This document shows, in pieces, positions 8,138 to 42,652 of a stretch of DNA of 64,000 nucleotides. The position numbers were made by a program, and so were the translations under genes. The DNA is from Trueperaceae bacterium. Its GTDB lineage: Bacteria > Deinococcota > Deinococci > Deinococcales > Trueperaceae. Location of the stretch: positions 1,536,001 through 1,600,000 of the forward strand of contig OZ243913.1 in NCBI GenBank assembly GCA_965213705.1, in the 5' to 3' direction. Each line of letters opens with the position of its first letter. Positions within the stretch are counted from its first letter, which is position 1. The notes under the pieces were generated by a model. The model saw nothing but the letters and a program-made list of their open reading frames with translations. It was not told where the DNA came from and ran no database searches.

Positions 8138-8410
8138 TTAGAAGCCCACCGCGGCCTCGAGCGAGTCGGGGAGCAGCCAGGCCGCTTTCTGCAGGGCGGC
8201 GCTCTGCGCTTCGGAAAGCGTTTCTCTCGCGCCGCGAAACTCGACGCCGTCCTCTTTGTGCCGACCTTCGAACAGCCACACGAAAGGGTGCTCGTCCGAA
8301 CCGAGTTCGTCGTCTTCGCCCGGAATGGGTGTGGCGGGGTCGAGCCAGGCGCTCAAAACGAACTCGCCGTAGTCCAAAAGGTGCTGCCCTCCGTCGTATC
8401 GCCAGGTCAT
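8138..8410 (-). CDS. Small acidic hypothetical protein, candidate LexA-regulated
   Basis: 90 aa ORF with leaderless promoter TTGCTT-17-TATTAT-7-ATG. Confidence 0.7.
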   Translation of the reverse strand: MTWRYDGGQHLLDYGEFVLSAWLDPATPIPGEDDELGSDEHPFVWLFEGRHKEDGVEFRGARETLSEAQSAALQKAAWLLPDSLEAAVGF

Positions 8411-8428
8411 ACCTTAGATAATAAGGTA
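8410..8428. promoter_or_regulatory. Palindromic operator copy 1: TACCTTA-GATAA-TAAGGTA
   Basis: Perfect 7-5-7 palindrome covering the -10 and start codon of 8138-8410. Confidence 0.8.
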
Positions 8429-8834
8429 AGCCGTCTCAAAAAGCAAGCCCCGTGTGAATTTTTTGGGGTTGTGGCTTGTGTGGCAGCGGTACCGCGATTT
8501 TAGAAATGACTTTCAAGAGCTTCAACTGTAGGGATTGGGACCGGCTCGAGCCCGGCGGGGGACGCCCGCTTGACGGTGCGACGGTAGCGCGGCCGTGACC
8601 CTGGACTTAAGCCTAGTCGTGAGCCAGCGGGTGTTTCAGCAGGCCAAAAACCTGCTCGCCGAAGTCGCAGGGTCGTCCGGCCCGCCCGCTTCGTAATCCT
8701 GCGGCGCTTGCCGGGTTTGGGCATTGCTGCTTACTGCGCTCGAGTTTCGGTCCTGTTTCGACCGCTGTTTTGACCGCTGTTCCGACCACTGTGTCAACCA
8801 CGTCTCGACTGGGGTATGCGGTTAAACTGAAGAC

Positions 8835-13572: not shown

Positions 13573-14217
13573 TCAGGCCGCTTCTCTGAACAGCTCGTCC
13601 ACGACCGCGCCGCGCAAAAGCGCGTCGTAAACGCCCGCTATGTACACGTCCGTCAGGTCGACTTCGATAGGGGCGTACGCGCGGTTGTGCGGTCTGAGCG
13701 AAGCGGTGCCGTCGGGGTGCAAGTCCAGGTATTTCAAGGTGGTTTCGTCTTCGTGTCTTACCGCGCAGATGTCGCCGTTTCGGTAGGGCGCTTTTTTCAG
13801 GATGACGACGTCCCCGTCTTGGATGGGCTCGCTCATTGAGTCGCCTTTGACCCGCAGGGCGAAGCGGTCTTCGCGGCCCGGCACGTTTAAGAAGCCTTCT
13901 AAGTGCTCGACCGCCTCGTGCAGACCGCCGGCGGCGATGCTGCCCAGCAGCGGGACGCCCTGCTGCAGGGTGCCGTCGTCGCCAAGGGTCAGGTTGCCGT
14001 ACTCAAACAGCCGGATGATGGGCGGTTTGCCCCGGCCTTGCGTTTGAAACGTCAGGTAGCCTTTGGTGTCAAGGGCTTCCAAGTGCTGCTTCAGCGACAC
14101 GTAGTGCATGCCCACCGCTTTGGCGACGTCGTTTAGGTTCGGTTGCCCGCCGCGCTCTCGCCACTGCTTTTTGAGCAGCGTCAACACGCGCTGCTGTGGT
14201 TGGGTCAGTTCAATCAC
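13573..14217 (-). CDS. lexA: LexA-family repressor (wHTH plus S24 autopeptidase)
   Basis: LTQPQQRVL N-terminal wHTH; VPLLGSIAAG cleavage site; GDSM Ser; TLK Lys; GTG start at 14217 after AAAGGGG. Confidence 0.85.
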   Translation of the reverse strand: MIELTQPQQRVLTLLKKQWRERGGQPNLNDVAKAVGMHYVSLKQHLEALDTKGYLTFQTQGRGKPPIIRLFEYGNLTLGDDGTLQQGVPLLGSIAAGGLHEAVEHLEGFLNVPGREDRFALRVKGDSMSEPIQDGDVVILKKAPYRNGDICAVRHEDETTLKYLDLHPDGTASLRPHNRAYAPIEVDLTDVYIAGVYDALLRGAVVDELFREAA

Positions 14218-14241
14218 AGATTCATCCCCTTTGTCAAGAGA

Positions 14242-14260
14242 CACCTTAGATAATAAGGTA
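14242..14260. promoter_or_regulatory. Palindromic operator copy 2: CACCTTA-GATAA-TAAGGTA, between lexA and SRAP
   Basis: 18 nt identical to copy 1; overlaps + strand TTGTCA-17-TAAGGT promoter; lies just downstream of - strand TTGACT-18-TACTCT promoter. Confidence 0.8.
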
Positions 14261-14337
14261 TTGTTACAGAGTAAGACGAACCCCGTGCGCAAGTCAAGCG
14301 CAAGACTTTACAAGTGGGAGTTTACCGGGAGGTTTTT

Positions 14338-14988
14338 ATGTGCGGTCGCTACGCGGCGAAGTGGGAGCCGGCCGAGTTTCAAAACGTGTTCGGCGTTCAG
14401 CCACCCTTGTTCGAGAGCTACAACGTAGCGCCGACGCAGTACGCGCCCGTCGTGTTGCGTCGAGGCGAGCGGGAAGTGGTGTTCGCCCGCTGGGGGCTCG
14501 TTCCTCGTTGGGTCGACAAACCGCTCGACTTTAGGGCGAACCTGTGCAACGCTCGAGCCGAAACCCTGCCAGAAAAAGCAAGTTTCAAGCGCCCGTTCAA
14601 GTCTCAGCGCTGCTTGGTCCCGGCCTCGGGCTTTTACGAGTGGCGGAAAGTCGGGGCAGCCAAGCAACCCTTCTACATCCGTTTGGAAGGCGCTGCGCCT
14701 CTGGCCTTTGCAGGTCTTTACGACCACTGGCAAAAAGACGACCAGAGCTTTTACTCTTACACCGTCATCACGACCTCACCCAACGCGTTTATGCAAAACA
14801 TTCACGACAGGATGCCGGTCGTCTTGGCGCCCGAGCACTTCGGGACCTGGCTGGGCGAGGACGGCGACCCAGGGGACTTGGAGGCCCTGCTCAGACCTTA
14901 CGAGGGTAACCTGGAGGCTTACGAAGTCGACAAAAGGGTCGGCAAAGTCAGGGAAAACGACGAACACCTGCTCGAGCCTGTAATCTAA
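14338..14988 (+). CDS. SOS response-associated peptidase (SRAP / YedK / HMCES, abasic-site protection)
   Basis: N-terminal MCGRY, YNVAPTQ, NARAET, GFYEW, IHDRMP; GGAGG RBS. Confidence 0.95.
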   Translation: MCGRYAAKWEPAEFQNVFGVQPPLFESYNVAPTQYAPVVLRRGEREVVFARWGLVPRWVDKPLDFRANLCNARAETLPEKASFKRPFKSQRCLVPASGFYEWRKVGAAKQPFYIRLEGAAPLAFAGLYDHWQKDDQSFYSYTVITTSPNAFMQNIHDRMPVVLAPEHFGTWLGEDGDPGDLEALLRPYEGNLEAYEVDKRVGKVRENDEHLLEPVI

Positions 14989-34457: not shown

Positions 34458-34907
34458 TCACTCGGCAACCGAGTCAAAAGTCCCCACAGCTCTCAGATAA
34501 GTGACGCGCCGACCAACATACAACCATTCTTCGTGATAATAGAACATGATGGAATTGTCTGCGTTGTGAACAACCATTGCGTCATCTCTACTTGGCATAA
34601 ATATATTTATCCAGTTTGCTAAAAAATTGTCGGCATCTAAAACACAAACCTCATGAGGGCTATAGACAATTTGCACCGTTCCTTTGTTACTCAGTCGCTG
34701 TCTAAGCCACGCTAGCGCAACAGCTTCACTTGCAATACTATGTTGCTCGATGTTGTAAGTCGTTTCTTCATTCAAGCCGATACCTGCTTTACTGGAATAT
34801 TTCAGAGCGTAACCATAAGCATTTTGAGCACGTTTTTTGTCAAGCCAACGCGCTTCTAAACCCAACTCTTCATACTCTTTAGGTCGGAAGGATTTCATGT
34901 TGCTCAA
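34458..34907 (-). CDS. AT-rich orphan protein
   Basis: 149 aa ORF with AT-rich codons inside GC-rich context; start uncertain. Confidence 0.65.
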   Translation of the reverse strand: MSNMKSFRPKEYEELGLEARWLDKKRAQNAYGYALKYSSKAGIGLNEETTYNIEQHSIASEAVALAWLRQRLSNKGTVQIVYSPHEVCVLDADNFLANWINIFMPSRDDAMVVHNADNSIMFYYHEEWLYVGRRVTYLRAVGTFDSVAE

Positions 34908-34962
34908 GCATAGATTATCCTACACATTGCGCTATAACATCCTCGCCAAAACCGCTCGAGTC

Positions 34963-36210
34963 TCACGGCTCGAGCGGTTTTGGAATCCGCCGCGCCACCT
35001 GCCCGACGGTCAACCCTTGGACTAAAATGGCGAAAACCACCACGCCGTAAGTCATCGCTAAGATGAGGTGGCGTTCCTCACCCGGCGGCAGCGACAGCGC
35101 CAAGGCTATCGAGATGCCGCCGCGCAAACCGCCCCACACCATCATCCGCACCGTGTAGGGCAAAAAGTTGCGCCGCAAGCGCAATAGGTTGATGGGCACG
35201 CCCACGCTCACCAAACGGCTCAGCAGCACGAGGGGGATGACGAGGAGCGCCGCGTAGAATTCTATGGGCAAGAACTCGACGATGAGCATTTCCAGTCCGA
35301 TGAGGACGAACAGCACCGCGTTGAAAATCTCGTCGGTCATCTCCCAAAAGGTGTCCAGGTGTTCGCGGGTGCGCTCGCTCATGGCGAACAGCCGCCCGCG
35401 GTTGCCGATGAAAAGCCCCGCCACCACCATCGCCAGCGGCCCCGAGGTGTGCAGCGCCAGCGCCAGCGCGTACCCGCCCGTGACGAGCGCCAGCGTGATG
35501 AGCACTTCGACGCTGTAGTTGTCGACGTTTTTTAAGAGGTAATAAGCAATCAAACCGATGACGAAACCGTAAGCGACGCCGCCCAAGGCTTCGGTGGCAA
35601 AGAGCAGCGCCACGCCCTCGAAGCCCGCCTCGCCCCCGCCGTGCCCGGCCCCGACCAGGCTCAAAATCACGCTGAACACCACCACGCCGACCCCGTCGTT
35701 GAACAGCGACTCGCCCGTGATAAGGGTCTCTATGTCTTTCGGCACGCCCACGCTCCGCAGGATGCTCAAGACCGCAATCGGGTCGGTCGGCGAAATGAGC
35801 GCGCCGAACAGCAGCGCGTAAATAAAGGGCAGCTCCAGCCCCAGCAAGCCCGCCAAGCCGTAAGCGAGCCCGCCGACGATAAAGGTCGAGGTAAGCACGC
35901 CCAGGGTCGCCAAAATCAGCACCGGCCACTTTTGTTTGGCTAAGTCTTCTAAGTTCACCGTCAGCGAGCCGGCGAACAGCAAAAAACTGAGCATTCCTTC
36001 CAACACGAGCGCGTTGAAGTCCAAACCGGTCAAAAACCCTTCGGCCCAGTTCCTCACCTCCGGGCTGGCAAACCCCAGAAACAGCAGCGACAACACGATG
36101 GCGATTAAAGTCACGCCGATGGGCGTGGGCAGTTTGATGTAGCGCTCGTTGATGTAACCGAACACCGCGGTAAGGGTGAGGAGGATGGCTAAGACTTCGA
36201 AACCGTTCAT
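34963..36210 (-). CDS. CPA1 Na+/H+ antiporter (NhaP family)
   Basis: [24 protein letters not shown]. Confidence 0.9.
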
Positions 36211-36377
36211 GGAGTCAGTTTAACGAAGTTGGCGCGACGGGGCTCCGGGGGGCAAAAAGTTCAGGCGTTTTCTCAATGTCCTCAGGCCCTTGCACCCTTT
36301 TCAAGACGCCGGCGACACCGCTCGAGAAGCCGGTTGAAAGGCCCTGTTTTATGCGTCTCTGACGTGCTTTCTCGTGC

Positions 36378-36406
36378 TTGACAAACCCGGTGATAAGGCC
36401 TATACT
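36378..36406 (+). promoter_or_regulatory. Near-consensus sigma-A promoter TTGACA-17-TATACT
   Basis: TTGACA at 36378-36383, TATACT at 36401-36406. Confidence 0.85.
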
Positions 36407-36411
36407 GAACA

Positions 36412-36430
36412 TACCTTAGTTTTTAAGGTA
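36412..36430. promoter_or_regulatory. Palindromic operator copy 3: TACCTTA-GTTTT-TAAGGTA
   Basis: Perfect palindrome (extends to ATACCTTA..TAAGGTAT) on the predicted +1 of the promoter above. Confidence 0.85.
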
Positions 36431-36478
36431 TAACCGTGAAAAGAGCAGTTCAATCTCCGAGGAGGATGTACCGAACCC

Positions 36479-36970
36479 ATGACCATGACGCTTTCCACAC
36501 CTTTGCTAGAGGCCGCCACACGACCCATCCTCAGCCGGGGCCGGACACGCCGGTCCGTTTTGCAGGCGCACACGCGCGTTGGAGCTACCTTGGACGCTCA
36601 CCCCGGCAACCATCCCGCTCGAGTGTTTCGGGACCTGACCAGCAGTTTTCAGCAAGACGCCGCCGGCGAGCGCGTCGACGTGTTGGCCGCCGAACTCGCG
36701 TCCTGTGTGGCCGCCGCGCGCGGCTCGCTGTGCTTGGGGCTGGTTCACAAAGAAACCGTGCCCAAACTGTACGGCCTCGTCTTTTTGCTCGACGGCTACG
36801 GCCTGGTGCTGCGCCAGCGCTACCGCGAGCAAGGCGACGGCGTGTTCGTGTTTTTAGACCGTAAGGGCGACGCCGCGAGCGAGTTCGCGGGCAGCGTCGT
36901 TGTTGAGCGCGTTGTTGAGCGCGGCGTGCCTGAGCGCTTTGCCGACGTGGCGCTGCCGTGGGCGGCGTAG
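36479..36970 (+). CDS. Hypothetical protein, first gene of the operator-controlled operon
   Basis: 163 aa ORF; GAGGAGG upstream. Confidence 0.7.
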   Translation: MTMTLSTPLLEAATRPILSRGRTRRSVLQAHTRVGATLDAHPGNHPARVFRDLTSSFQQDAAGERVDVLAAELASCVAAARGSLCLGLVHKETVPKLYGLVFLLDGYGLVLRQRYREQGDGVFVFLDRKGDAASEFAGSVVVERVVERGVPERFADVALPWAA

Positions 36971-36982
36971 GGGAGGTTGACG

Positions 36983-37780
36983 ATGGTTAACACCGAAACT
37001 CAGGTCGACTGGCCCGCGTTGCTGAACGCCCTCGCCGAGCCTTTTCCGCAAGAAGCCGTGTCGTGGCGCGCGGGCGCGTTGTCGCGCGACAAAAAGCGCG
37101 CGCAAGCCTTGCCCTACGCCGAGCCGCGCGTCTACGAAGACCGCTTGAACACGGTCTGCCCCGGCGACTGGAGCGTGCGGTTCGTGCCCTGGGGCGAGAA
37201 CCGCATCATCTGCGAACTCACCGTCCACGGCGTCACCCGCAGCTCGACCGGCGAAGAGAACGACGGCGGTTTCGCGCCCGGCACCGCCGCCGAGGCGCAA
37301 GCCTTCAAGCGCGCCTGCAGCAAGTTCGGGTTGGGCCGCTACCTGTACGACATCGGCATCGACTGGATTGACTACGACGAAGACAAACGTCGTCTCGTCA
37401 AGACGCCGAACCTGCCGGATAGGTTTTTGCCCGCGAAAAAGGTTGCGGTCAAGACTGGGACGGAAGCTAGAGCCGAGACCAGGATGAGCGCCAAACCCGC
37501 GCCGACACCCCTGCCCAAGCCTGTCCAAACCCTGCCGGCCAAACCGCTCGAGACCCCCCAAGCCCCGCTTCTCACCCCCGACCGGGCCGAGGCGATGGCG
37601 AAAGAGTTGGAAAAACTCGGTTTCGCCCGCGGTGTAGCGGGTGCGGCCAAGCCTAACGAACAGCTCAAACTCGCTACCTCGGTGCTGGGCCATCCGGTGC
37701 GCGCGTTCACCCAACTCACCGAGGCCGAAGCCTTGGAAGTCTGGGCCTCGGCCAAGCGCCTCAGCAAAAGCGTCGCGTGA
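36983..37780 (+). CDS. Rad52/Rad22-family single-strand annealing protein (DdrA/Sak-like)
   Basis: LAEPFP...RVYEDRLNTVCPGDW...LTVHGVTR...AFKRACSKFGLGRYLY; GGAGG 6 nt before ATG 36983. Confidence 0.85.
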   Translation: MVNTETQVDWPALLNALAEPFPQEAVSWRAGALSRDKKRAQALPYAEPRVYEDRLNTVCPGDWSVRFVPWGENRIICELTVHGVTRSSTGEENDGGFAPGTAAEAQAFKRACSKFGLGRYLYDIGIDWIDYDEDKRRLVKTPNLPDRFLPAKKVAVKTGTEARAETRMSAKPAPTPLPKPVQTLPAKPLETPQAPLLTPDRAEAMAKELEKLGFARGVAGAAKPNEQLKLATSVLGHPVRAFTQLTEAEALEVWASAKRLSKSVA

Positions 37781-37938
37781 AGCCCGCGCCCGCCGGGGCG
37801 GTGTACGTGTGCCAGGGCTGCAAGCGGCGCGCGGAGGTGTGCGTTCCCGCCAAGGTTACCTGCAGCCGTTGCGGTCGCCCCATGAAGGTGGAAGATGAAA
37901 ACGGACATTCCCGCGCTCAAGGCGAACCGCGACTTTAG
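37777..37938 (+). CDS. 53-aa Zn-ribbon protein (below the ORF-track cutoff)
   Basis: MKPAPAGAVYVCQGCKRRAEVCVPAKVTCSRCGRPMKVEDENGHSRAQGEPRL; GTGA overlap with the Rad52 gene stop. Confidence 0.65.
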   Translation: MKPAPAGAVYVCQGCKRRAEVCVPAKVTCSRCGRPMKVEDENGHSRAQGEPRL

Positions 37939-38845
37939 AACAATAGTTGCGACAACGCACCCTATCGGCAGGGACGGCAAGATTTGCTGTCCCTTCCACG
38001 ACGACGCACACCCGAGCTGCCACATCTACCCCGACGGCTACAAGTGTTTCGCCTGCGGCGCGCACGGCGACCACCTGACTTGGTTGGAAGAGGTGCAAGG
38101 GCTGTCGGTCGCGGCGGCCATCGCTTGTTTGGCGGGCGGTGGCGGCTCGCTGCCGCGCCGCCCGCCCCCACGCCGCGCCAAGGCGACAGTGAATTACAGC
38201 CCGATAAGCGCGGCTGCTTACAGCAGTTACGCTCACCGGTTGCGGGTCACGAACCGTTTGCCAAAAGCCCTCGAGCACCGCGGCCTCAACTTAGAGCAGG
38301 CCCTTCAACTCGGCGTCGCCGCGCTCGGTGACGACGCGCTGCTGCCCATCGCCGGGCCGTCGGGCGACATCTTGGCGCTCAAACGTCGTTTTTACGCCTC
38401 CCAGGACGGCTTGCGCTACGCCTACACGACCGCCGGCCACGGCAGCCCGGCCTGGTGCTCGCCCAACTTTCTGAGTTGCGAGCACGTGCTGGTGGTCGAG
38501 GGCGAACTCAACGGAATCGTGAGCTATTCGGTCCTCAAGGAGGTGGGAGCCGAGGTAGCGGTGATGGGTGTGGCGGGCGTGTACGGCGGTTTGCACGAGG
38601 CGGCGCTGCGCGGCAAACAGGTTTACGTGTGGGCCGACCGGGACGGACCCGGCACGCGCGCCAGAAAACGCTGGCAGTCCAAAGCGCGGCGCGCGGGCTG
38701 CGCGGTCGCCAAGGCGCTTCCCTCGACAAGCGCCGACGCCTGCGAGTTGGCCGGGCAAGAAGGGCGGCTCTACTTGGCCTCGTGGTTGTTGGAGGCGATG
38801 AACAAGCGCCTCAAAACCCGCACCCCACAAAAGGAGTTGGCATGA
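37895..38845 (+). CDS. DnaG-like primase: CHC2 Zn finger plus TOPRIM
   Basis: CPFHDDAHPSC...YKCFAC; VVEGE; WADRDGPG DxD. Confidence 0.8.
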   Translation: MKTDIPALKANRDFRTIVATTHPIGRDGKICCPFHDDAHPSCHIYPDGYKCFACGAHGDHLTWLEEVQGLSVAAAIACLAGGGGSLPRRPPPRRAKATVNYSPISAAAYSSYAHRLRVTNRLPKALEHRGLNLEQALQLGVAALGDDALLPIAGPSGDILALKRRFYASQDGLRYAYTTAGHGSPAWCSPNFLSCEHVLVVEGELNGIVSYSVLKEVGAEVAVMGVAGVYGGLHEAALRGKQVYVWADRDGPGTRARKRWQSKARRAGCAVAKALPSTSADACELAGQEGRLYLASWLLEAMNKRLKTRTPQKELA

Positions 38846-39090
38846 TTGGCGTAACGACAAGCGAATGTCCGCGTTGCCAGGGCGAAGGTGTCTTGCTGTT
38901 TGCGGGGCGTCCCGGCGCGTTCTCGAGCTTAGAAGACGGTTTTGTACCCTCGGAAGCCTTTCGCGCCTGCCCCGACTGCTCGGGCGAAGGCGAGTTGGAG
39001 GTCTGCGCGGAGTGCCTGCAACCGTTGACCATCCAGCGCGGGCGCGAAGTCTGCGGCTGCGCCGAGCTTGCTTGGTTGGACGCGGCCTGA
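38842..39090 (+). CDS. Small DnaJ-type Zn-finger protein
   Basis: CPRCQGEG and CPDCSGEG plus CAEC and CGC; AAGGAG RBS; ATGA overlap. Confidence 0.75.
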   Translation: MIGVTTSECPRCQGEGVLLFAGRPGAFSSLEDGFVPSEAFRACPDCSGEGELEVCAECLQPLTIQRGREVCGCAELAWLDAA

Positions 39091-39255
39091 CGTTCAGACT
39101 GATACCTTTTCCGTTTAATTATGAGGTATAAGGTCGCTCGAGCCGGCGCTGTCAAACAAAGGGTTGCAACCACTCATTAGCTGAGAGAAGTGTGTGAAAG
39201 GCGAGACCTCAGGCGAGTTGCGGAGATTCTCAGGCCTCGAGCCGGCCCCTACCGG

Positions 39256-39999
39256 TCAAGCGGCCTCGGCAGGCAGCAGCTTTCCGGCGCCCACACCTGT
39301 CAGGTAGGCCAAAAACGACGGCAGGATCGGCAACACGCAGGGCGACAAAAACGACAGCAAACCGGCCACAAGGGCGAGCCCGAAACCGGGCCGACTCCCG
39401 GCGAGGCTGTTTTCAAGACTGCCCAAACTCGCCAAGTACGGCGACAAGGCGGCGACCGAGTCGGTCAGCAGCAGTACGCCCACCAAGACGAGCAACACGC
39501 CGCCCGCTTTTTCAATCGTTCCGGTGTACCGGTTCAGTTTGCGCACGCTCGGCAGCGCTTGCGCGGCTATCAAAAACGGCAGCGCGAAGCCGAGCGAGTA
39601 AGCGCCCAGCAGCAAGCCGCCCTGCAGGGCTGAACCGCTCGTGCCTGCCACGAGCAAAATTCCACCCAAAATCGGCCCGACGCAGGGCGTCCAGCCCGCC
39701 CCAAAAGCTATGCCGACCAGCAGCGAGCCCGCATACCCCGACGGCTTGGTGCTGAAACGCGCCCGTAAATCGCGCTGTAAAAACGCCAGCGGAACCAGGC
39801 CCAACATCAACAAACCGAAAAAAATCAGCGCGACGCCCGCGCCGATGCGCAGCGCGTCGCCAAACCTAAACAGCAGGTCGCTCACCAAACCGGCGCTGAA
39901 GCCGAGGGCCACAAACACCGTACTCAAGCCCATGACAAACATCAGGCTGTGCAAGCCGATGTGAAGGCGCACGGGCAGGGCGGCTCGAGACGTACTCAC
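39256..39999 (-). CDS. ccdA: CcdA/DsbD-family thiol-disulfide transporter, circularly permuted
   Basis: GWTPCVGPIL mid-protein; GLLSFLSPCVLP at the C-terminus. Confidence 0.85.
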   Translation of the reverse strand: MSTSRAALPVRLHIGLHSLMFVMGLSTVFVALGFSAGLVSDLLFRFGDALRIGAGVALIFFGLLMLGLVPLAFLQRDLRARFSTKPSGYAGSLLVGIAFGAGWTPCVGPILGGILLVAGTSGSALQGGLLLGAYSLGFALPFLIAAQALPSVRKLNRYTGTIEKAGGVLLVLVGVLLLTDSVAALSPYLASLGSLENSLAGSRPGFGLALVAGLLSFLSPCVLPILPSFLAYLTGVGAGKLLPAEAA

Positions 40000-40003
40000 G
40001 GTT

Positions 40004-40552
40004 TCACGGCTTCCAAGTCACGCCGATACTCGCCAGCAAACCGGGCGCTTCGGACGGCAGTAACAGGCCCACCTTGACGCCGCGAACGATTCCCTCAGCG
40101 TCGATGAAAAACGTCGTCGGCATCCCGCGCACGCGGTAGTTGCGGAGGGTCTTGTCGGTGGTCTCGAGCGCCGTGTCCTGCGCCTTGAACGCCTCCCGCT
40201 GCTCTTTCGTCGGGTCGAGGACAGTGGGCAAGGTAATCTCTAAACCCTGCAAAAAGGAAAGGGCCTCGGCCGGGTTTTCACCGTTGTTGACGAGGAGGAC
40301 GGCGAGGTTTTCTCCGGCTGCGTTGACTTCGCTGTAGAGCCGCTGGAAAAAGGGCAATTCTTCGACACAAGGCGCGCACCAGCTGGCCCACACGTTGAGG
40401 ATGAGCGGCTGGCCCCGGAAGTCCTCCAAACTGACGCTTTCACCCTGACCGTCGACGAGGTTGAACGCGGGCGCTTCGCTGCCCACGCCCTGCGCCGTCA
40501 CGGGCGTGGGCAGCGTCAAGAGAACGCCGAGGCAGAATATGAGCAGTTTCAT
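40004..40552 (-). CDS. TlpA/ResA-type thioredoxin
   Basis: Signal peptide, NVWASWCAPC, GMPTTFFID. Confidence 0.9.
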   Translation of the reverse strand: MKLLIFCLGVLLTLPTPVTAQGVGSEAPAFNLVDGQGESVSLEDFRGQPLILNVWASWCAPCVEELPFFQRLYSEVNAAGENLAVLLVNNGENPAEALSFLQGLEITLPTVLDPTKEQREAFKAQDTALETTDKTLRNYRVRGMPTTFFIDAEGIVRGVKVGLLLPSEAPGLLASIGVTWKP

Positions 40553-40605
40553 ACCTCGGAGGATAGCGAAAGCCCCCTCGGGTCGCCGTATCGAAGTTGA
40601 CCGGG

Positions 40606-41445
40606 CTAGCGGAGTTGCTCGAGCACGTCCGCGCCCAACTCACGCCCGAGCGCGACAGCCTCGGCCGCTTCGCCGACGACCTCGGCCTGGACCGAGAGCG
40701 CCCTGCTGTTGTCGGCCACCGCGCCGAACAGGGTCAGTTCGCCGTCGCTCGTGACCGTGGCGAGCGTGCCGACCGCGTACCGGTCGTGGCCCTCGAACAC
40801 GGCGGCGAAGCTGCGCTCGGCTACAGCGCGGTCAAAGCTCGGGCGGTGTTGGAGGCTGTAGGCGAGTTCGTAAGCCATGTCGTCGCTTTCTTGAACGACC
40901 AAGCCGGTACTGCCCTGGCCGGGCGCGGGCGGAAACAGGTCGGGCTCGAGCAGCGCGTCCGCCGCCGCGCGCCGCCCGAGTTCGCTCAGGTGCGCGCCGG
41001 GCACGAGCAGCGCGTGGACGCGCCCGGCAGCGAGTTCGGCCAGTTGCGCGTCCAAGTTACCGGTGAGGACTTGGGGCTGCAAGTCGGCCCTGGCCGCGCA
41101 CACGAAAGAATAGTCGCGTTCGCCCTGAACCCCCACGGCGGCGTTCGGCGGCAGCTCGGCGAGCGCGGCTTGGCCTTTGGTGAGCAGCGCAGTCCTGGGC
41201 TCGAGCCGCTTCGTCACCGCGACCAGCGCCACGCCTTCGGGCAGAACGAGCGGCAGGGTTGCTAGGTCGAACAGCGCGACACCGACCTGACCCCTGGAGA
41301 GAGCGCTCAGGAGTTCGGCGTCGCTTAAAAAGGTGCGTTGGTTAAACTGAACGTCGGGCCATTCTGTCGTGAGGTCGGCGAGGACGGTGCGCGTTTGGGC
41401 TACGGCCACAGCGCTGCCCCGACCCCCTAAAACGATTCTTGCCAT
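40606..41445 (-). CDS. Degenerate hydroxymethylbilane synthase (HemC)-like protein
   Basis: RGS..A..Q, R.EPR, GN, PAPGQG and AERS retained; catalytic motifs missing. Confidence 0.75.
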   Translation of the reverse strand: MARIVLGGRGSAVAVAQTRTVLADLTTEWPDVQFNQRTFLSDAELLSALSRGQVGVALFDLATLPLVLPEGVALVAVTKRLEPRTALLTKGQAALAELPPNAAVGVQGERDYSFVCAARADLQPQVLTGNLDAQLAELAAGRVHALLVPGAHLSELGRRAAADALLEPDLFPPAPGQGSTGLVVQESDDMAYELAYSLQHRPSFDRAVAERSFAAVFEGHDRYAVGTLATVTSDGELTLFGAVADNSRALSVQAEVVGEAAEAVALGRELGADVLEQLR

Positions 41446-41482
41446 ACCTAAAGTTTACCCTCCCTCAAAATTTTGCCTTGTG

Positions 41483-42652
41483 TCACTTGCTCGCGGCCGC
41501 TCGCAACGCCGCGCCGCGGTCGGTCGCCTCCCACGGAAAACCCTCACGCCCGAAGTGTCCGTAGGAGCTGGTCGCCTTGTAGATGGGTCTACGCAAGTCG
41601 AGCTGTTCGATAATCGCCGCGGGCCGCGCGTCGAAAACCTCGTGAACGAGTTTGCTCAACGTCTCATCGCCAACTTGCGACGTGCCGAAACTGTCGACGT
41701 ACATCCCGACCGGCCGTGCTACCCCGATGGCGTAGGCGAGCTGCACCTGACAGCGCTCGGCCAGCCCCGCCGCGACGACGTTTTTAGCGATGTAGCGGGC
41801 GTAGTACGCGCCGCTCCGGTCGACCTTGGTCGGGTCCTTGCCGCTGAACGCGCCGCCGCCGTGGGGCGCTGCGCCGCCGTAGGTGTCGACGATGATTTTG
41901 CGCCCGGTGAGCCCGGCGTCGCCCTGCGGCCCGCCGATGACGAAGCGGCCGGTCGGGTTGACGTAGAACTTGGTCGCTTCGCTCAGGTAGTGTTCGGGGA
42001 TAACCGCGCACACGACTTCGCGGATGAGGTCGTCGCGCAAGCGCTCTTGGTCGACCTCCGGGTGGTGCTGCGCCGACAGCACGACGGCGCTGACGCCGGT
42101 CGGGGTCGCGCCGTCGTAAGAAACGGTCACTTGCGCTTTGCCGTCGGGGCGCAGGTACTCGAGCACCCCGGTTTTACGCACCTCCGCCAAACGCTGCGTT
42201 ATCTTGTGTGCCAGCGTGATGGGCAGCGGCATCAGTTCGGGCGTCTCCCGCGTCGCGTAGCCGAACATCAGCCCTTGGTCGCCCGCGCCGGTGCGGTCGT
42301 AGCGGTCGCCCGAGGCAGCCTCGAGCGCGCTACTCACCCCCTGCGCGATGTCGGGCGACTGCTCGTTGATGGCGACCAGCACCGCGCTGTGGTCGGCGTC
42401 GAAGCCGTAGTCGCTGTTCGTATAGCCGACCTCGCGCACCGTCTCGCGCACCAGCGCTTGAACGTCCACGTACCCCGTCGTGGTGATTTCACCGGTGACG
42501 AGCGCCAAACCGGTGCAAAGCAGCGTTTCCGCCGCCACCCGCGCCTGCGGGTCGAGCGCCAAAAGTGCGTCCAACACGCTGTCGCTGATGCGGTCGGCAA
42601 GCTTGTCCGGGTGGCCTTCGGTGACCGATTCGGCCGAGATGAGCTTAAACAT
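41483..42652 (-). CDS. metK: S-adenosylmethionine synthetase
   Basis: [25 protein letters not shown]. Confidence 0.97.

Follow-up and report, generated by a model that had tools for sequence, protein, structure and literature searches.

Architecture of the operon

We analyzed a 64,000-nt stretch (the window) of the genome of a Trueperaceae bacterium (contig OZ243913.1). The Trueperaceae are relatives of Deinococcus that resist radiation. Between positions 36378 and 39090, the window contains a five-gene operon that includes a gene for a Rad52-type single-strand annealing protein (SSAP) and carries a palindromic operator at its promoter. The features are as follows, with fractions of 19 referring to the operons found in the family.

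36378..36406, + strand: sigma70-type promoter TTGACA-17-TATACT, a near-consensus match; same layout in 19/19 operons
36411..36431, no strand: palindromic operator ATACCTTA-N5-TAAGGTAT, putative LexA (SOS) box over the predicted +1
36479..36970, + strand: orphan gene, 163 aa; conserved ~110-aa alpha/beta domain from about 36608; Ala-Ala end
36983..37780, + strand: Rad52/Sak/Erf-type SSAP, 265 aa from ATG; N-terminal ~150 aa, variable linker, ~65-aa C-terminal domain
37777..37938, + strand: CxxC-CxxC zinc ribbon, 53 aa; in 17/19 operons
37895..38845, + strand: CHC2-TOPRIM primase, 316 aa; DnaG/T7-like fold; accessory, in 3/19 operons
38842..39090, + strand: zinc finger, 82 aa; two CxxCxGxG plus CxxC and CxC; Ala-Ala end; in 18/19 operons
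39256..42652, - strand: flank with ccdA, tlpA-like, hemC-like, and metK genes, outside the operon; marks the fixed locus

The promoter matches 11/12 consensus bases and was the sole match in 34500-41000 (shuffled sequences averaged 0.9 at the 9/12 threshold). The operator is a perfect 8-5-8 palindrome that starts 5 nt past the -10 hexamer and therefore covers the predicted +1. An initial annotation of this DNA had described a near-consensus promoter with a palindrome on +1 and five coupled genes, and both descriptions were borne out: the orphan and SSAP genes are separated by a 12-nt gap with a GGAGG site, and the following junctions overlap by 4, 44, and 4 nt. The window contains three copies of the palindrome with at most three mismatches, versus 0.00 expected.

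The GC content of the operon and its third-position GC (GC3) are host-like, as the annotation had stated. The operon is flanked by a Na+/H+ exchanger gene on one side and by ccdA, tlpA, hemC-like, and metK genes on the other (tlpA and metK are presumptive names). No integrase, att site or tRNA, helicase partner, or structural genes were found at the locus, no direct repeat closely brackets the operon, and the window contains no tRNA or tmRNA gene, in agreement with the claimed housekeeping surroundings free of phage hallmarks. An ATACCT...AGGTAT inverted repeat 3' of the last gene was rejected as a feature, as it is not kept in genomes G001 or G021. The hemC-like gene (window 40606-41445) scores 134 bits against a hemC cut-off of 164 and is conserved beside metK in the family; it is possibly a diverged paralogue.

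The palindrome is a family-wide motif, most likely a LexA box

The palindrome (consensus TACCTTA-N5-TAAGGTA) is not confined to the operon. The 4.25-Mb genome contains 13 sites with at most three mismatches, some of which lie upstream of recA, uvrA, both lexA genes, and the gene for an SOS response associated peptidase (SRAP). The initial annotation had proposed that the operator gates the operon: the palindrome does lie at the operon promoter, but it is not specific to it. We built a matrix from 11 of the sites and ran it on other genomes. The box (score ≥12) was found upstream of lexA in 29/30 loci, one of them from this genome itself, and in 0/30 with a reversed-matrix control. Upstream of recA, it was present in 11/23 full-length loci (26 of the 30 fetched loci were scored, and 3 truncated ones were dropped), in 0/8 cinA-linked copies, and it was missing from 4 other copies. 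The box pattern rose above its control in 25/25 family genomes versus 3/16 genomes from other families.

A LexA match was detected in 45/46 genomes. The LexA proteins score 103–106 bits against TIGR00498, just below the cut-off of 111, and retain the Ala-Gly cleavage site, the Ser/Lys motifs, and the DNA-binding domain of a cleavable LexA. A box upstream of lexA is the usual autoregulatory signature, and we read TACCTTA-N5-TAAGGTA as most likely being the Trueperaceae LexA/SOS box. One palindrome precedes lexA, recA, and uvrA, as in a LexA/SOS regulon, and we infer that Trueperaceae run a classical SOS regulon with a box of their own. The damage inducibility that the annotation had ascribed to the operon is thus probable, given that its operator is this family-wide box.

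The radiation/desiccation response motif (RDRM) described in PMC8533742 has a different sequence from the box. This genome gave 0 matches to two RDRM patterns, one of them taken from that paper. Among 128 family genomes, 79 of them high-quality, we found no full-length match to IrrE (7 weak domain matches, best 8e-8) and no DdrB. Neither the RDRM nor IrrE, the marks of an IrrE/DdrO regulon that we looked for, was therefore detected; no search was made for DdrO.

Could a different repressor than LexA bind the palindrome, or could the operon primase start local run-off replication upon damage, in the manner of gene-transfer-agent systems? Either seems very unlikely to us. A different regulator would fit D. 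radiodurans, in which recA lies outside LexA control according to the accessible text of PMC8072749 and PMC5552922, and a primase at a fixed site could serve as an origin factor. However, the box stands before lexA in nearly every locus scored, no IrrE orthologue was found in the 128 genomes, and the primase lacks a helicase partner. In contrast to Deinococcus, Trueperaceae carry the box at recA. The literature searched, which did not extend to supplements, regulon databases, and most subscription journals, yielded nothing on the box, the operon, or the apparent substitution of LexA for IrrE/DdrO in Trueperaceae.

The operon is conserved at one locus under purifying selection

The orphan gave strong matches in 20/128 family genomes. 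One of these (G111) is unpublished and was excluded, so that all counts are over the 19 remaining genomes, which belong to 8 genera. The order of elements is box, optional lexA, orphan, SSAP, zinc ribbon, optional primase, and zinc finger. The box, the orphan, and the SSAP are present in all 19 operons, the zinc finger in 18, the zinc ribbon in 17, a lexA head in 10, and the primase in 3. A TTGACA and a near-consensus -10 hexamer precede the box in 19/19 operons, and the ccdA/tlpA/hemC-like/metK flank is found in 15/19, with two of the other four lying on short contigs. Synteny, which the initial annotation had proposed as a check, is thus retained both in the locus beside metK and in the promoter with its box. 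Each of the three deep branches in an RpoB tree (a single gene and a quick method; 27 rows, with 2 short ones dropped) contains carriers, a spread that suggests the operon has long been present and has been lost many times.

The second proposed check, the ratio of nonsynonymous to synonymous substitution rates (dN/dS), gave 0.04–0.39 for the five genes in 12 genome pairs (Nei-Gojobori; 2 values undefined by saturation). The dS of the operon was similar to that of lexA, the hemC-like gene, and metK, and purifying selection extended to the 50-aa gene. We therefore reject decay.

Relatives in mobile elements point to domestication

The orphan, zinc finger, and SSAP genes occur in that order in a prophage that also has genes for portal, head protease, capsid, endolysin, and integrase. 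ArdC-linked versions occur in several genomes, and this genome (G000) contains a partial one: an element remnant at L129:12970-19185 (G000:C1:~2202970-2209180) containing a paralogue of the orphan, ArdC, and an integrase whose sequence is divided between two frames. SSAP relatives are carried by 18 viral contigs, none of which contains the orphan, the zinc fingers, the primase, or the box.

Since the copies in mobile elements have diverged further and fall outside the operon clade, the simpler reading is that the operon genes were probably domesticated from such elements. The annotation had called the system domesticated, and this is supported by the fixed locus, the purifying selection, and the related genes that a prophage and ArdC/integrase elements carry. 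A recent or decaying prophage or satellite remnant that came by chance to lie behind a LexA promoter would also explain why four of the five genes come from mobile elements, why their presence is patchy, and why there is one truncated and one broken copy elsewhere. However, the frames are intact, every defined dN/dS value falls in the range given above, even for the 50-aa gene, the same locus and promoter recur across three deep clades, and the locus has no integrase, tRNA, or att-like repeat. Such a remnant is largely refuted, and we consider it extremely unlikely.

The SSAP belongs to a clade separate from DdrA

With PF04098, the SSAP scored 25.7 bits against a cut-off of 20.3, and it matched PHROG 1097, annotated as 'Erf-like ssDNA annealing protein', at 3e-20. 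These profiles assign it a Rad52-type N-terminal domain; the Pfam match is marginal, because a first genome-wide search with PF04098 gave no candidate. The 19 operon SSAPs form one clade (98/98), and their nearest relatives are copies from ArdA- and ArdC-bearing elements, a prophage copy, and one solo gene. Deinococcus-type DdrA and the DdrA-like gene of the family itself fall outside the operon clade (long branches flagged). The operon SSAP sits in a separate 100/100 clade of 23 rows and has a different C-terminal domain; the DdrA-like gene of this genome sits elsewhere and has no box. The Rad52 part of the 'Rad52/DdrA-like' annotation therefore stands, but the protein is not a DdrA orthologue. 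The long Pro-rich linker that had been noted is not conserved, shrinking to about 10 residues in several orthologues.

DdrA of Deinococcus radiodurans, a Rad52-family member of the IrrE/DdrO regulon, is nonetheless the obvious comparison: both proteins are chromosomal, appear tied to damage, and share the Rad52-type domain at the N terminus (with 36% identity between the SSAP and a copy of the Deinococcus type). The operon SSAP differs in its position nearer the prophage and ArdC-element copies, in its C-terminal domain, in its company of three or four other genes, and in the lexA/recA box that replaces the RDRM. The annotation had assumed that DdrA anneals DNA. This premise was wrong: the accessible text of the primary paper reports binding and protection of 3' ends only, with no annealing detected (PMC515370).

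The operon also resembles the phage Sak/Erf and Sak4 recombinases (PMC2896510 and PMC5928155, both available in part) in its PHROG 1097 match, in the gene trio of the Trueperaceae prophage, and in a Sak4-like gene in the regulon (see below). Unlike the phage systems, it consists of fixed host genes under purifying selection, and no exonuclease, SSB (a protein that binds single-stranded DNA), or phage repressor was identified in it.

Searches of Pfam, the PDB, and the Atlas gave no assignment for the SSAP's C-terminal domain, and no solved relative of the SSAP was found by sequence. A likeness of this domain to a GemA-like protein that carries the box (see below) was rejected (probability 0.7%). 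The domain is equally conserved in primase-less operons and in mobile copies and is therefore not a primase-specific docking domain.

Orphan, zinc-finger proteins, and Ala-Ala tails

The conserved domain of the orphan begins about 43 residues into the open reading frame (ORF), the orthologous start Met having been lost in this genus. The orphan family comprises 131 clusters at 50% identity, and a search of 201 genomes of the order detected it in Trueperaceae alone. It matched no Pfam, PHROG, or NCBIfam family, no Atlas entry above 0.79, and no viral fold under E 0.06. Against the PDB, the best Z was 5.7, and KH and R3H rows (Z 4–4.8 over 45–70 residues) lay within background.

The 53-aa zinc ribbon of the initial annotation has a CxxC-CxxC pattern and recurs in most of the operons. 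In G017 (L061:1779-2432), a Lys-rich ORF of 217 aa ends in the ribbon, and G046 also has a long insert there. The last zinc finger had been called DnaJ-type. The DnaJ zinc finger has four CxxCxGxG repeats; this protein has only two and scores 20 bits against the PF00684 cut-off of 32.7, so the assignment fails.

The orphan ends in Ala-Ala in 19/19 operons, the last zinc finger in 18/18, and the SSAP in 10/19; the corresponding counts are 3/17 for the zinc ribbon, 0/3 for the primase, and 62/3239 for all called genes of the genome. Terminal Ala-Ala is the main ClpXP signal (PMC7652416, available in part). Both tmRNA tags of the genome end in LAA, and we infer that the tails of the orphan and the last zinc finger act as a ClpXP-type degron. 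The two tmRNA genes are standard and encode different tags (G000:C1:2604421-2604788 and 4112539-4112901); a permuted call at 2202004 is doubtful.

The primase is an accessory gene

The annotation had correctly recognized a CHC2-TOPRIM primase that retains the E and DxD residues. CHC2 matched at 2e-11, TOPRIM fell below its cut-off, E202 and D248-x-D250 are present, and the predicted fold (pLDDT 83) resembles DnaG/T7 primase (Foldseek 9e-12 to Aquifex primase and 3e-7 to T7). The CHC2 zinc domain and the TOPRIM fold with its Glu and DxD residues are those of bacterial DnaG and the T7 gp4 primase domain. The motif EGELN occurs in 23/23 aligned rows; DnaG has Asp in place of the Asn. The operon primase is distinct from housekeeping DnaG: it is 316 aa long (the host's own DnaG has 613 aa), it has no DnaB-binding domain, and it scores 64 bits against the dnaG cut-off of 284 (TIGR01391).

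Primase homologues occur in 16/128 genomes. Outside the operon, they adjoin an AAA_25 or DUF3987 gene in 12/14 loci, with an integrase nearby in 7/14, and two tRNA-linked elements show the same arrangement. These replicons of integrative elements, which we take to be of the P4/PICI-like class, encode the same primase family (38–46% identity, with EGELN and DxD), but the operon primase has no adjacent helicase, integrase, excisionase, or tRNA site, and no cognate AAA_25 or DUF3987 helicase was found in this genome. The operon primase derives from these element primases.

The three operon primases form one clade (96/89) at the same position, and their hosts do not form a clade in RpoB (approximately unbiased test, p 1.2e-4). 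This implies a single capture of the gene, followed either by repeated loss or by transfer from lineage to lineage. No primase remnant was detected in 15 primase-less operon gaps (best E 0.04). With a dN/dS of 0.24–0.28 and a dS to the G021 copy of about 1.5, as saturated as its neighbors, the operon primase is probably functional but outside the conserved core. Two lineages carry it as an accessory, and the system can do without it.

The initial annotation had proposed an anneal-and-reprime system. In its strongest form, the SSAP and the primase would be one machine, ancestral to the operon and later trimmed in most lineages. The single primase clade, its constant position, the scattered hosts, and the saturated dS fit such an old presence, and the selection on the gene, its intact E and DxD, and the missing helicase also speak for it. 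However, the primase is absent from 16/19 operons and left no trace in the gaps examined, the SSAP C-terminal domain does not differ between operons that have the primase and those that lack it, and the related primases are replication genes of integrative elements. We therefore regard this ancestral machine as decidedly unlikely; anneal-and-reprime is at most a lineage-limited add-on.

A putative SOS-induced annealing operon

We favor, at a probability of roughly 60%, the reading that an operon derived from phages or mobile elements became established beside metK in many members of the family, that LexA likely represses it through the palindrome, and that damage likely induces a brief burst of a Rad52-type protein that binds or anneals single-stranded DNA (ssDNA), along with its helpers. 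RecA on ssDNA would trigger LexA self-cleavage and free the operon promoter. The SSAP would then coat and protect ssDNA ends and anneal complementary fragments, in parallel to RecA, and so would fill the slot of DdrA and DdrB in Deinococcus, the latter not found in the 128 family genomes. The orphan and the zinc fingers would be accessory factors inherited with the SSAP, ClpXP would clear the Ala-Ala-tailed proteins once damage ends, and the primase may add helicase-independent priming in two lineages.

Several points weigh against this reading. Annealing is its least secure step: DdrA, the nearest characterized relative, bound and protected 3' ends with no annealing in vitro (accessible text of PMC515370), and the SSAP may likewise only protect ends. 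Scores within this genome are circular, since the matrix was built from 11 of its own sites, and the genome carries two LexA paralogues, either of which could be the binder. The operon occurs in only 19/128 family genomes plus the unpublished one and is therefore dispensable in most lineages; one genome has a truncated form (lexA, a diverged orphan, and the zinc ribbon) that lacks the SSAP. The orphan and the zinc fingers are without an assigned function. Finally, Ala-Ala also ends 63/110 wider orphan homologues, so that the tails were inherited from mobile ancestors and give no sign of host tuning.

The patchy retention raises a different possibility, namely that the SOS-induced operon acts on mobile elements and hinders or assists prophages and satellites that wake in SOS, for example through a decoy or dominant-negative SSAP, primase, or early-gene products. 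For four of the five genes, resident elements of the family harbor close relatives, frequently within the same genomes, and other boxed genes are phage-like (the Sak4-like and GemA-like genes and a Panacea antitoxin). However, the operon has been retained vertically for long at one housekeeping locus, lexA stands at its head in 10/19 cases, its flanks show no defense-island context (no PADLOC search was made), and the primase retains its acidic motifs. On balance, an action on mobile elements is unlikely.

Trueperaceae might resist damage by a route other than that of Deinococcus: a LexA switch with its own operator and a domesticated phage kit (the Rad52-type operon and the Sak4-like gene) instead of IrrE/DdrO and DdrB, to which two lineages add a helicase-free primase for anneal-and-reprime. 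We put forward this wider picture only tentatively. Its ingredients (SOS regulons, phage recombinases, and domesticated phage genes) are known in kind. The palindrome at lexA, recA, and uvrA and the lexA that heads a damage-gene operon are features of LexA/SOS regulons, and Deinococcus has an SOS-type operon, lexA-imuY-imuB-C-dnaE2 (PMC8072749, available in part). The Trueperaceae cargo is a phage annealing module, in contrast to that mutagenesis cassette. The model relative Deinococcus relies on IrrE/DdrO, a system independent of SOS, and we found the regulation and execution of DNA repair in Truepera-family bacteria addressed nowhere in the literature searched. Our analysis yields a precisely defined candidate for the SOS box, a predicted regulon, and an operon that is conserved; it makes testable the idea that damage resistance was built independently from phage parts in Trueperaceae, and it shows a single gene module in its mobile donors, as fixed copies, and in partly lost form, next to one another.

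Other genes that carry the box

Two further copies of the box lie in the window, with the following neighbors.

8409..8429, no strand: third box copy, upstream of a minus-strand 90-aa ORF that belongs to no known family
13573..14238, - strand: second LexA of the genome (lexA2), with DNA-binding plus S24 domains, the Ala-Gly site, and the Ser and Lys motifs
14241..14261, no strand: second box copy, between the divergent lexA2 and SRAP genes
14314..14988, + strand: SRAP, boxed, divergent from lexA2

The lexA2 and SRAP genes (window 13573-14988) thus diverge from one shared box, and the second LexA ends in Ala-Ala.

The genome has two recA copies (G000:C1:102982-104022 and C1:~3349160-3350200; L165 and L193) with ~95% DNA identity. 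One stands alone and has the box, and the other lies behind a cinA-like gene and has none. Two recA matches were found in 17/31 family genomes. The pair suggests an inducible copy plus a separately regulated one, perhaps homogenized by gene conversion.

A stand-alone Sak4-like AAA_24 gene at L072:3811-4812 (G000:C1:1943810-1944811) is also boxed and is 66–95% identical across 14 other genomes. It was found in 15/128 genomes, 14 of which are operon carriers (kin, not independent cases). Its box scored at least 13 in 13/15 genomes and 11.6 and 9.1 in the other two, with controls at most 3.6. Downstream of this gene lies a gene for a 731-aa collagen-repeat protein (L072:1440-3635).

The top-scoring box of all is followed directly by a gene for a 156-aa protein with a Mu GemA-like N-terminus (L073:4066-4536). 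A boxed Panacea/SocA-like antitoxin gene (L076:4080-4604) precedes a 183-aa ORF, a possible SOS-controlled toxin-antitoxin pair. The remaining boxed genes are small and of no known family: window 8138-8429 (90 aa), L071:18850-19549 (215 aa), and L074:4203-4511 (92 aa).

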